From assembly GCF_009931435.1 (NCBI RefSeq), contig NZ_CP043414.1: DNA of 64,000 nucleotides, one strand, 5' to 3'. Below the pieces are notes generated by a model. The model made no database searches. It worked only from the letters and a program-made list of their open reading frames with translations, and was not told the origin of the DNA. The translations under genes were made by a program, and so were the position numbers. The stretch is from Escherichia coli. Its GTDB lineage: Bacteria > Pseudomonadota > Gammaproteobacteria > Enterobacterales > Enterobacteriaceae. Within the stretch, counting starts at the first letter, position 1. The number at the start of each line of letters is the position of its first letter. Shown piece by piece: positions 46,310 to 54,828 of this stretch.

Positions 46310-48967
46310 GTGACTTTCTTTGATTTCTGGGGAAAAACCCGACGTGGCGAGAAAGAGGGTGGCGACGATTATCACCTTCTTTGCTGGCATTCGCTGGATG
46401 TAGCCGCGATAGGCTATTTAATGGTCAAAAACAACTGTTTCGGGCTGGCTGACTATTTTCGTCAATTAGGTTTCGCTGACACGGATCAGGCAGCACAATT
46501 TTTCGCCTGGTTGTTGTGCTGGCACGATACTGGAAAATTTGCCCGCTCATTTCAGCAACTTTACCTGCACCCACAACTCAAGGTTCCGGAAGGCGCAAGA
46601 AAGAATTACGAAAAGATCTCTCATTCAACGCTGGGTTACTGGTTGTGGCATCATTATTTAATTGAATGTGAAGAGTTGCTTCCTTCATCTTCACTCTCTT
46701 TGCGCAAACTTAAACGAGTAATAGATATGTGGATGCCCGTGACGACCGGGCATCATGGTCGGCCTCCTGACCGTATCGATGAACTGGACAACTTTCTGCC
46801 TGAAGACAAAGCTGCCGCACGGGATTTTCTCCTTGAAATCAAGGTACTGTTTCCGCTCATCGAGATCCCTACATTCTGGGATGATGACGAGGGCGTTGAA
46901 CTTATAAAACATTTTTCCTGGTATATCTCTGCAACCGTCGTACTCGCAGACTGGACGGGATCGTCAACGCGGTTTTTTCCACGCGTTGCACAGGCAATGG
47001 ATATTAAAGATTACTGGCAGAAGGCTTTAGTTCAGGCTCAAAACGCATTAACCGTCTTTCCCCCAAAAGCAGAAAGCGCGCCTTTCACTGGAATTAATAC
47101 GCTGTTTCCTTTTATTGAGAACCCAACACCGTTACAGCAAAAGGTGTTGGATCTGGATATCAGCCAGCCAGGACCACAGTTGTTTATTCTGGAAGATGTG
47201 ACTGGCGCAGGTAAAACAGAAGCGGCGCTTATCCTGGCGCACAGGTTGATGTCTGCGGGGAAAGCACAGGGTTTGTTTTTTGGCCTGCCAACAATGGCAA
47301 CGGCCAATGCCATGTACGATAGGCTGGTAAAAACCTGGCTTGCTTTCTATTCGCCACAATCCCGCCCCAGCCTGGTGCTGGCACACAGCGCTCGTTCGCT
47401 AATGGATCGCTTTAACGCATCGCTGTGGTCTGGTGATTTTGTGGGGTCAGAAGAACCGGATGAACAAGCGTTCAGTCAGGGATGTGCGGCCTGGTTTGCT
47501 GACAGTAACAAGAAGGCGTTGCTGGCTGAAATTGGCGTCGGCACGCTGGATCAGGCGATGATGGCGGTGATGCCGTTCAAACATAATAATCTGCGGCTTC
47601 TGGGGCTGAGTAACAAAATCCTGCTAGCCGATGAGATCCACGCCTGTGACGCTTATATGTCGTGCATTCTTGAAGGGCTGATCGAGCGGCAGGCGCGTGG
47701 CGGAAACAGCGTTATTTTGCTTTCTGCTACGTTGTCTCAACAGCAGCGTGACAAACTCGTCGCCGCCTTTGCGCGTGGTGCAGAGGGCCAGCAAGAAGCT
47801 CCGTTGCTGGAAAAAGATGATTATCCCTGGCTGACGCATGTCACGAAATCCGATGTGCATTCGCACCGGGTAGCGACGCGCAAAGACGTTGAGCGCAGCG
47901 TGAGTGTGGGTTGGCTTCATAGCGAACAAGAGTGTATTGCGCGTATCGAATCGGCGGTAAGTCAGGGGAAATGCATCGCCTGGATTCGGAATTCTGTCGA
48001 TGACGCCATCCAGGTTCATCGTCAGCTGCTTGCCCGCGGCGTCATTCCTGCTTCCAGCCTTTCACTTTTTCATAGCCGCTTTGCTTTCAGCGATCGCCAG
48101 CGAATTGAAACGGAGACGCTGGCACGCTTTGGTAAAGAAGACTGTTCACAGCGTGCCGGAAAAGTCCTCATTTGTACTCAGGTCCTGGAGCAGAGCGTCG
48201 ACTGCGACCTGGACGAAATGATTTCCGACCTTGCCCCTGTTGATTTACTGATCCAGCGAGCAGGGCGATTACAGCGACATATCCGCGATATTAATGGTCA
48301 GTTAAAGCGTGACGGTAAAGACGAGCGTCACCCTCCTGTATTGCTGATTCTGGCCCCCGTCTGGAACGACTCTCCGGGTGAAGAATGGTTTGGCTGTGCC
48401 ATGCGTAACAGTGCATTTGTCTATCCCGATCATGGGCGAATCTGGTTGACGCAGCGTGTGCTGCGTGAACAAGGCGCGATTCAGATGCCACACTCAGCCC
48501 GGCTTCTGATTGAATCAGTCTACGGTGAGGACGTGGTAATGCCGGAAGGGTTTGCCCGCAGCGAGCAGGAGCAAGTGGGCAAATACTACTGCGATCGTTC
48601 AATGGCTAATAAGTTTGTGCTGAACTTCAGGCCCGGCTATGCCGCCAATATCAACGATTACCTCCCGGAAAAACTGTCGACACGTCTGGCTGAAGAGTCT
48701 GTTTCCCTGTGGCTGGCTAGCTGTATTGGCGGTGTGGTGAAGCCTTATGCCACCGGTGCACACGCATGGGAAATGAGCGTTGTCAGAGTGCGCCAAAGCT
48801 GGTGGAAAAAACATCGGGATAAGTTTTCTTTACTGGAAGGGGATGCGTTCAGGCAGTGGTGCGTTGAACAGCGGCAAGATCCGGAGATGGCAAACGTGAT
48901 TTTGGTCACCGATGACGAAAGTTGTGGATATTCGGCTACGGAGGGATTGATTGGCAAGGTTGGTTGA
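46310..48967 (+). CDS. cas3: Cas3 HD-nuclease/helicase (type I-E)
   Basis: 885-aa ORF (GTG start, AAGGA RBS); HD motif ...LLCWHDTGKF..., Walker A VTGAGKTEA, DEIH box LLADEIHACD, then helicase C-terminal region. Confidence 0.93.
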   Translation: MTFFDFWGKTRRGEKEGGDDYHLLCWHSLDVAAIGYLMVKNNCFGLADYFRQLGFADTDQAAQFFAWLLCWHDTGKFARSFQQLYLHPQLKVPEGARKNYEKISHSTLGYWLWHHYLIECEELLPSSSLSLRKLKRVIDMWMPVTTGHHGRPPDRIDELDNFLPEDKAAARDFLLEIKVLFPLIEIPTFWDDDEGVELIKHFSWYISATVVLADWTGSSTRFFPRVAQAMDIKDYWQKALVQAQNALTVFPPKAESAPFTGINTLFPFIENPTPLQQKVLDLDISQPGPQLFILEDVTGAGKTEAALILAHRLMSAGKAQGLFFGLPTMATANAMYDRLVKTWLAFYSPQSRPSLVLAHSARSLMDRFNASLWSGDFVGSEEPDEQAFSQGCAAWFADSNKKALLAEIGVGTLDQAMMAVMPFKHNNLRLLGLSNKILLADEIHACDAYMSCILEGLIERQARGGNSVILLSATLSQQQRDKLVAAFARGAEGQQEAPLLEKDDYPWLTHVTKSDVHSHRVATRKDVERSVSVGWLHSEQECIARIESAVSQGKCIAWIRNSVDDAIQVHRQLLARGVIPASSLSLFHSRFAFSDRQRIETETLARFGKEDCSQRAGKVLICTQVLEQSVDCDLDEMISDLAPVDLLIQRAGRLQRHIRDINGQLKRDGKDERHPPVLLILAPVWNDSPGEEWFGCAMRNSAFVYPDHGRIWLTQRVLREQGAIQMPHSARLLIESVYGEDVVMPEGFARSEQEQVGKYYCDRSMANKFVLNFRPGYAANINDYLPEKLSTRLAEESVSLWLASCIGGVVKPYATGAHAWEMSVVRVRQSWWKKHRDKFSLLEGDAFRQWCVEQRQDPEMANVILVTDDESCGYSATEGLIGKVG

Positions 48968-49063
48968 TATGCCTGCGACAGGATTCTCTGAATAGTTGAT
49001 ACACAAAAAAGGATGGAAGGATGGATAACCGACCTGGGATGGTCTTTTTACGAGAGGATGCGT

Positions 49064-53618: not shown

Positions 53619-54538
53619 CGTTTGTACCACTGAGTCCGATCCCGTTAAAAGATCGCACCTCCATGATCTTCCTCCAGTACGGTCAGATCGACGTACTGGA
53701 CGGCGCTTTCGTGCTGATCGACAAAACAGGGATCCGCACGCATATTCCGGTGGGATCGGTCGCTTGCATAATGCTCGAACCAGGAACGAGAGTTTCCCAC
53801 GCGGCGGTGCATCTGGCCGCCACGGTGGGGACACTGCTGGTCTGGGTCGGTGAAGCGGGCGTTCGCGTTTACTCCTCCGGACAACCCGGAGGGGCGCGGG
53901 CAGATAAATTACTCTACCAGGCAAAGCTGGCTTTAACGGAAGATCTACGGTTGAAGGTGGTGCGCAAAATGTATGAATTACGTTTTCGTGAACCACCGCC
54001 AGCTCGCCGTTCAATGGAGCAGTTACGGGGAATTGAGGGAGCCCGCGTTCGCCAGACCTATGCATTACTGGCGAAGCAATATGGCGTGAAATGGAATGGT
54101 CGCAAATACGATCCTAAAGACTGGGAAAAAGGCGATGTTGTGAATCGCTGCATCAGTGCTGCCACATCATGCCTGTACGGTATTTCTGAAGCGGCAGTAT
54201 TAGCCGCGGGATATGCGCCCGCTATTGGTTTTATCCATGGTGGCAAACCGCTTTCATTTGTTTATGACATAGCCGATATCATTAAATTTGATACGGTTGT
54301 GCCAAAGGCATTTGAAATAGCGGCGAGGCAACCCGCAGAACCAGATAAAGAAGTCAGGTTGGCCTGTCGCGATATTTTCCGTAGCACTAAGTTAACGGGC
54401 AAATTAATCCCGTTAATTGAGGAAGTCCTTGCCGCCGGTGAAATTGAACCACCACAACCCGCGCCGGATATGTTACCGCCAGCTATCCCGGAACCTGAAA
54501 CGCTGGGTGATAGTGGTCACCGGGGGCGCAGCGGATGA
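53615..54538 (+). CDS. cas1: Cas1 integrase
   Basis: 307-aa ORF (GTG start) [65 protein letters not shown]... Confidence 0.95.
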
Positions 54539-54828
54539 GCATGGTCGTGGTTGTTACAGAAAATGTCCCGCCGCGCTTACGTGGACGGCTCGCGATCTGG
54601 CTACTGGAAGTGCGTGCTGGTGTTTATGTTGGTGATACATCCAAACGTATTCGGGAGATGATCTGGCAGCAAATCTCCCAACTGGCAGGTTGCGGAAATG
54701 TGGTCATGGCCTGGGCGACCAATACCGAGTCGGGTTTTGAATTTCAGACCTGGGGTGAAAACAGACGTATTCCGGTGGATTTGGATGGGTTACGGTTGGT
54801 TTCGTTTCTTCCTGTTGAGAATCAATAA
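54535..54828 (+). CDS. cas2: Cas2
   Basis: 97-aa [37 protein letters not shown]...; ATGA overlap with cas1. Confidence 0.95.

Follow-up and report, generated by a model that had tools for sequence, protein, structure and literature searches.

The 64,000-nt stretch of Escherichia coli contig NZ_CP043414.1 (assembly GCF_009931435.1) that we analysed, called the window throughout, carries at 46310–54828 the cas operon of a type I-E CRISPR system. Its interference genes, cas3 to cas6e (casE), are unlike those of E. coli K-12, whereas Cas1 and Cas2 resemble their K-12 counterparts, and a sequence-only reading took this contrast as the mark of a recombination junction near 53600. Is the operon a mosaic? 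We find that it is, with a probability of about 0.9, a complete, vertically inherited, non-mosaic copy of the major Escherichia cassette, known as cas-E1 or cas-EO and carried by O157:H7. The mosaic look arises because K-12 served as the yardstick: K-12 carries the minority cassette cas-E2, and there the whole block from cas3 to the leader differs.

With the K-12 MG1655 locus as reference, a gene-by-gene comparison gives amino acid identities of 29–31% for Cas3, 21–23% for Cse1, 31% for Cas7, 35–36% for Cas5 and 26–30% for Cas6e, and BLASTP finds no significant match between Cse2 (CasB) and K-12 CasB. The difference from K-12 reported for Cas3 to Cas6e is thus real (approximately 20–36% identity, or unalignable), and the K-12 N-termini cited for it agree with the K-12 proteins. 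Cas1 and Cas2, however, are not near-identical to K-12, as had been claimed. Cas1 shares 84.8% of its amino acids and 70.5% of its nucleotides, with a proportion of synonymous differences (pS) of 0.82; the values for Cas2 are 86.2%, 73.4% and 0.76. The flanking genes cysI, cysH, iap and cysD, by comparison, are 94.4–95.5% identical to K-12 in nucleotide sequence, with a synonymous divergence (dS) of 0.23–0.27. In 60-nt windows, identity to K-12 is 37–48% (unalignable) upstream of 53615, the first position of cas1, and approximately 70–75% downstream, where it never nears the level of the flanks. Divergence from K-12 is thus not confined to cas3–cas6e but spans everything between hok and the leader, both included.

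On the recombinant reading, an interference module not of K-12 type became linked near 53600 to an adaptation module like that of K-12. This reading accounts for the leap in amino acid identity to K-12 from approximately 26–30% in Cas6e to 85% in Cas1, which occurs exactly at 53615, but the DNA on the cas1 side is not of K-12 type: cas1 and cas2 match K-12 at only 70–73% of nucleotides with saturated synonymous sites, next to flanks at 95%. K-12 and O157:H7 differ at 388 sites within cas1, cas2 and the leader; the window agrees with O157:H7 at 349 of them, with K-12 at 19 and with neither at 20. The 19 K-12-like sites are all isolated, the longest K-12-type run being one site, and a scan of these discriminating sites found no K-12-like tract in cas1–cas2–leader. 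The window also scores below the cut-offs of the K-12-specific NCBIfam models PRK09694 (421 bits versus 569) and PRK09693 (103 versus 576). With interference genes far from K-12 and cas1–cas2–leader DNA of another type, the operon does not belong to cas-E2.

A single alignment joins 40299–55136 to the O157:H7 locus at 93.8% identity. Measured per 500 nt, identity ranges from 89% to 98% from cysJ through the leader and shows no break at the cas6e/cas1 boundary, nor is there an abrupt switch of lineage anywhere within the operon. Uniform identity to one reference lineage is the outcome that the sequence-only reading had itself named as refuting a mosaic. At the protein level, Cas3 (92.9%), Cse1 (95.8%), CasB (84%), Cas7 (98.3%), Cas5 (96%), Cas6e (95.4%) and Cas1 (97.7%; 96.2% in nucleotides) all stand close to O157:H7, every Cas protein lying between 84% and 98%. 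The leader is nearly identical to that of O157:H7, and both loci have the GTG form of the repeat. The GC content is likewise uniform over the supposed junction, at 51.8% in the interference genes and 52.5% in cas1–cas2. Synonymous divergence from O157:H7 is 0.13–0.32 in the cas genes and 0.24–0.39 in cysI, cysH, iap and cysD; the operon has therefore changed at much the same pace as the core genes around it, which fits vertical inheritance. Judging by those flanking genes, the host would be an Escherichia lineage approximately 5% diverged from K-12. The closest complete genome is that of strain 2013C-4282, which matches the operon at 98.7% and the region 40304–55205 at 97.6%.

We searched 5426 complete E. 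coli genomes for natural hybrids with two synthetic queries representing chimeric junctions. Identity was used as the criterion and coverage was dropped, since megablast alignments run on into the half of cas1 that comes from the other variant (approximately 75% identical), so that parental genomes reach 100% coverage at 87.3% identity. A junction of E1 cas6e with K-12-type cas1, the arrangement that the recombinant reading requires, was found in none of the 5426 genomes, the best match being the parental arrangement at 87.3%. The converse junction, K-12 cas6e with E1 cas1, occurs in one genome at 96.9%, that of E. coli BS-04 (NZ_CP172819). This strain has K-12-type cas3–cas6e followed by O157:H7-type cas1 (from about nucleotide 30), cas2 and leader (10351–11660 of the extracted locus), and its Cas2 has the same amino acid sequence as the O157:H7 protein. 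A run of 225 consecutive K-12-type discriminating sites gives way to O157:H7-type sites approximately 30 nt inside cas1 (at about 10380 of the locus). Recombination at the cas6e/cas1 seam therefore happens but is rare, 1 in 5426, and although BS-04 shows that such a junction can exist in nature, we regard a recombinant origin of the window operon as highly improbable.

The window variant is also the common one. Its operon was matched in 2792 of the 5426 complete genomes, mostly at 93–94% identity, and 2419 of these match at least 80% of the operon; K-12-type interference genes are present in 1187 complete genomes and K-12-type cas1–cas2 in 1222. K-12, the model organism for type I-E, thus carries the minority cassette, the window variant being about twice as frequent among complete E. 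coli genomes. Mechanistic details established in K-12, such as the protospacer-adjacent motif (PAM), acquisition motifs and the control of the long cas3–casA spacer by H-NS and LeuO, may consequently not transfer.

If the window did not acquire K-12-like DNA, why do Cas1 and Cas2 look so conserved? We collected 80 related loci, one genome per species, with a Cas1 profile that found roughly 200 Cas1e-bearing species. In all 80 loci, which are proteobacterial and include Oceanospirillum, Marinomonas, Methylophaga, Shewanella, Bordetella and Parasutterella, Cas1 is 75–98% identical to both the window and K-12. The interference proteins of the same loci fall into discrete classes: in E1 (Escherichia, Salmonella, Klebsiella, Citrobacter), Cas7 shares 70% or more of its residues with the window protein; in E1b, the figure is approximately 50–63%; and in E2, Cas7 shares about 50% or more with the K-12 protein. 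Some few loci fit none of these classes, and protein distances between classes are near saturation. Within E1, divergence is proportional, with cas7 nonsynonymous divergence (dN) two to three times and cas3 dN four to seven times that of cas1. Cas1e and Cas2e are thus under very strong purifying selection and evolve several-fold more slowly than the interference proteins.

One could accordingly explain the contrast by rates alone, E1 and E2 having diverged once as whole operons, never with any module exchange, and Cas1 and Cas2 having stayed similar through constraint. The saturation of synonymous sites in all eight genes, the persistence of at least 75% Cas1 identity across very distant hosts and the two- to sevenfold lower dN of cas1 within E1 are all in line with this explanation. 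It does not, however, cover cas7: at a cas1 dN of about 0.13, cas7 dN reaches 0.78 in the comparison with K-12, as opposed to 0.37–0.38 with Pectobacterium or Pluralibacter, and slow evolution of Cas1 and Cas2 therefore accounts for most, not all, of the contrast.

What remains is addressed by trees, which we built by neighbour-joining from corrected p-distances with 200 bootstraps. With the interference proteins (Cas7+Cas5+Cas6e), E2 comes out as a monophyletic class in 200 of 200 bootstraps, and with Cas1+Cas2 in 0 of 200, a discrepancy that speaks against divergence as intact operons. The E1 clade that holds the window is recovered in both trees (200/200 for Cas7+Cas5+Cas6e, 185/200 for Cas1+Cas2), and it is K-12 that shifts from one tree to the other. 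In the Cas7+Cas5+Cas6e tree K-12 always lies closest to a locus of the E2 class (Erwinia endophytica, a Pantoea), in the Cas1+Cas2 tree always to an E1b locus from enterobacteria (Raoultella terrigena, Citrobacter portucalensis). K-12 Cas1 shares 95% identity with its counterpart in an Enterobacteriaceae metagenome-assembled genome (MAG) with E1b interference genes, and at most 86% with the Cas1 of any sampled E2-class locus. In K-12, GC content rises by six points inside the operon, from 44.0% in cas3–casE to 50.1% in cas1–cas2, with the jump at the casE/cas1 boundary (7773–7789 of the K-12 locus), which again speaks against rates as the only cause. Because the K-12 trees are incongruent and its GC content jumps at this boundary, the shuffled operon would be that of K-12. 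The incongruence between interference and adaptation phylogenies thus belongs to K-12, and the window is congruent.

Five pairs of loci lead to the same boundary. Their Cas1+Cas2 distances are 0.01–0.12, yet their interference genes belong to different classes, which the rate explanation does not foresee. Four of the pairs each come from a single genus (Marinomonas, Oceanospirillum, Halopseudomonas, Methylophaga), and the fifth is formed by an Alteromonas MAG and Marisediminitalea; in all five, the DNA becomes homologous again at cas1 or shortly upstream of it. We therefore consider it unlikely that rate differences were the only cause. The cas6e/cas1 boundary is a real seam in the type I-E family, with the K-12 operon probably shuffled and the window operon congruent, and the suspicion that something happens there was well placed: divergence from K-12 shifts sharply at 53615 and cassette exchange in the family is real, although the window itself is not a mosaic.

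The contrast between the window and K-12 then has two causes, the slow change of Cas1e and Cas2e under strong purifying selection and, as tree incongruence and GC content suggest, an exchange of cas3–cas6e in deep time beside adaptation modules that track host taxonomy. The K-12 interference genes would come from a distant class and its cas1–cas2 from the enterobacterial pool. The likeness of Cas1 and Cas2 between the variants thus reflects strong constraint and, probably, an old module exchange on the K-12 side, and not recent common DNA. For type I-E in the Gammaproteobacteria as a whole we lean, with some reserve, towards a general form of this reading: the cas3–cas6e cassette would have been replaced repeatedly, while cas1–cas2 stay in place along with leader and array (and in some loci a gene for a KilA-N protein) and track host taxonomy. 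Crossover would be preferred in the conserved 5' end of cas1, K-12 would be a chimera of low-GC E2 interference genes and an enterobacterial adaptation module, and the E1 operon of the window would be unshuffled.

The KilA-N gene just mentioned (approximately 272 aa; Pfam PF04383, E = 4e-17) lies between cas6e and cas1 in 12 type I-E loci, marine or environmental by their host names; L067 (9135–9959), L037 (9172–9990), L053, L065, L068 and L069 are among them. In the marine loci, NCBIfam models had no meaningful match to this gene. The gene is found beside three different interference classes, and it appears to stay on the cas1 side where cassettes differ.

Several points weigh against the reading we prefer. 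The trees are distance-based and not of the maximum likelihood type, and the loci were picked by Cas1 similarity with a single genome for each species, so that lineages combining E2 interference genes with K-12-like cas1–cas2 could be under-sampled. For Cas3 taken by itself, the dN ratio between E1 and E2 (approximately 6) lies inside the range seen within the E1 class (4–7), in keeping with the rate explanation, and rate differences alone could explain Cas3. The dS of the cas genes against O157:H7 is somewhat below that of iap, so that some recombination within E1 may have taken place; smaller exchanges of this kind are also hinted at by the uneven dS against strain 2013C-4282, which is 0.11 in casA and 0.02 in cas3. 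Finally, the start of cas3 is uncertain, because a 1-nt insertion upstream of the GTG codon at 46310 puts ATG 46267, the annotated cas3 start in O157:H7, out of frame and brings a TAA stop codon at 46300.

The open reading frame (ORF) from GTG 46310 is itself intact and is preceded by a GAAGGA motif; the statement that the operon has no frameshifts accordingly holds for this frame and fails for the one that begins at the upstream ATG. Strain 2013C-4282, whose cas3 is 99.2% identical to that of the window in nucleotides, has an annotated cas3 one base longer than that of O157:H7 and flagged as frameshifted, probably due to the same 1-nt indel.

The ORF list places eight intact genes, all on the plus strand, between 46310 and 54828, and all eight proteins exceed the curated NCBIfam cut-offs for type I-E families, which confirms that the operon is complete, intact and of this subtype. 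Starting from GTG, cas3 (46310–48967) encodes 885 aa and joins an HD nuclease domain to a helicase domain in a single protein, as in type I-E; residues 24–219 match TIGR01596 (HD) and residues 292–662 match TIGR01587 (helicase core). The signature genes casA/cse1 (cas8e; 49064–50626, 520 aa, TIGR02547 with 611 bits) and casB/cse2 (50623–51159, 178 aa, TIGR02548) are accompanied by cas7e/casC (51174–52229, 351 aa, TIGR01869), cas5e/casD (52240–52986, 248 aa, TIGR01868) and cas6e/casE (52968–53618, 216 aa, TIGR01907), all of them above cut-off. The adaptation genes cas1e (53615–54538, 307 aa, TIGR03638) and cas2e (54535–54828, 97 aa, TIGR01873) adjoin an array whose repeats measure 29 nt and whose spacers measure approximately 32 nt, again as expected of type I-E, and Cas1 residues E141, H208 and D221 are invariant in the Cas1 alignment. 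Neighbouring genes overlap or nearly abut, which bears out the description of their junctions as coupled: casA/casB and cas1/cas2 overlap at ATGA, cas6e/cas1 at GTGA and cas5/cas6e by 19 nt. The remaining gaps after casA measure 10–14 nt, and the spacer between cas3 and casA measures 96 nt.

In type I-E systems, Cas6e cuts the array transcript into CRISPR RNAs (crRNAs), and Cse1, Cse2, Cas7, Cas5 and Cas6e form with a crRNA the Cascade complex, which finds PAM-flanked targets. Cas3 degrades the target DNA, and Cas1–Cas2 insert new spacers beside the leader. From its family membership, the operon of the window presumably works in the same way.

Upstream of cas3 we find, in this order, cysI, cysH, the cysH terminator (45673–45704) and an intact hok/sok module; promoter and terminator scans of the region upstream of cas3 and of the cas3–casA spacer gave nothing above chance except this terminator. 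The module consists of the sok antitoxin RNA (45778–45934, plus strand; Rfam RF01794, 103 bits versus a gathering score of 59) and a hok-family toxin ORF of 50 aa (45919–46071, plus strand), taken from the ORF list, which matches the NCBIfam Hok models below their cut-offs and whose orthologue is annotated as a Hok/Gef family protein in O157:H7. On this left side, homology between the window and K-12 stops at 45921, the hok ATG; the hok coding sequence is absent from K-12, which retains only sokX of the module. Position 45921 is the left edge of the cassette replacement in K-12.

Downstream of cas2 follow a 96-nt leader of O157:H7 type (54829–54924, plus strand), the CRISPR array, iap and cysD. 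The leader was placed by alignment and is approximately 72% identical to that of K-12. A 104-nt match to the 3' end of cas2 in strain PK8217 had hinted that K-12-type genomes have the end of cas2 and the leader in common with the window; this idea was dropped, K-12 being only about 72–78% identical there. The array (54925–55990, plus strand) has 18 repeats of GTGTTCCCCGCGCCAGCGGGGATAAACCG, spaced mostly 61 nt apart, and 17 spacers of 31–33 nt. Its GTG form, common to O157:H7, differs from the K-12 repeat (GAG) at position 2, and would correspond to the repeat published as type A, as opposed to type T, by Diez-Villasenor et al. (2013, PMC3737337).

Much of this had been described before. Several Cas1 groups are incongruent with the species tree, and replacement of whole cas loci through conserved flanks has been proposed (Touchon and Rocha 2010, PMC2886076). 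The cas-EK (K-12) and cas-EO (O157:H7) variants each go with a particular leader and type of repeat, and the motif used in acquisition is CTT in K-12 and CWT in O157:H7 (PMC3737337). Almendros et al. (2014, PMC3903273) reported the split into E1 and E2, in which E2 has taken the place of E1 in a minority of strains, K-12 among them. A survey from 2025 gives the identities between the variants as 73% (nucleotide) and 84% (amino acid) for cas1, 75% and 86% for cas2, and 23–32% in amino acids for Cas3, CasA, Cas7, Cas5 and Cas6, with CasB unmatched (PMC12736100); our values agree with these. The two variants, their linkage to leader and repeat, and the cassette replacement in strains like K-12 were thus known from publications of 2010–2014 and re-tabulated in 2025, and as a discovery the sequence-only reading carries little weight, being a correct but imprecise sighting of a published dimorphism.

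Set against the known cassettes, the window shares with cas-E1/cas-EO of O157:H7 the eight genes and their order, the position between cysH and iap, the intact upstream hok/sok module, the leader type, the GTG repeat and a GC content of approximately 52% (published E1 mean, 53.5%). It departs from typical E. coli cas-E1 copies by approximately 6% DNA divergence, matching that of the core genes on either side, and from the O157:H7 copy by the 1-nt insertion that removes the upstream ATG start of cas3. With cas-E2/cas-EK of K-12 it has in common the subtype, gene order, chromosomal position and spacers of approximately 32 nt, together with a 29-nt repeat that differs at one position; unlike the window, K-12 has a 414-nt cas3–casA spacer, interference genes of low GC content (44%) and no hok coding sequence. 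At a more general level, the adaptation (cas1–cas2) and effector modules evolve semi-independently, and the Cas1 tree departs from the effector tree (Koonin and Makarova 2019, PMC6452270). Here, too, Cas1 and the effectors give different trees, but the exchange takes place inside one subtype, I-E, and at a fixed boundary, cas6e/cas1, and the window is unshuffled.

E1 cas genes also turned up outside Escherichia. Positions 1–4467 of the locus from Pseudocitrobacter vendiensis CPO20170097T are 98.6% identical in nucleotides to 50458–54924 of the window, from the 3' end of casA through the leader, whereas iap and the genes on the cysD side reach only 73–79%; no spacers are common to the two. The pattern suggests that the E1 cassette moved as a whole from one genus to another in recent time and came to lie at the same position beside iap. 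Two Gram-positive MAGs, labelled 'Bacillota bacterium' and 'Collinsella sp.', hold E1 cas genes whose proteins are 85–98% identical to those of the window (93.9% DNA identity for the latter MAG), probably owing to binning contamination. No spacers shared between the window array and the arrays of the related loci were found with a regular expression that under-counts arrays with variant repeats. A second type I-E array, distant from the cas genes, lies at 28396–29218 on the plus strand; 12 of its 14 repeats have the GAG form of K-12, and the last two have the GTG form found throughout the cas-adjacent array.

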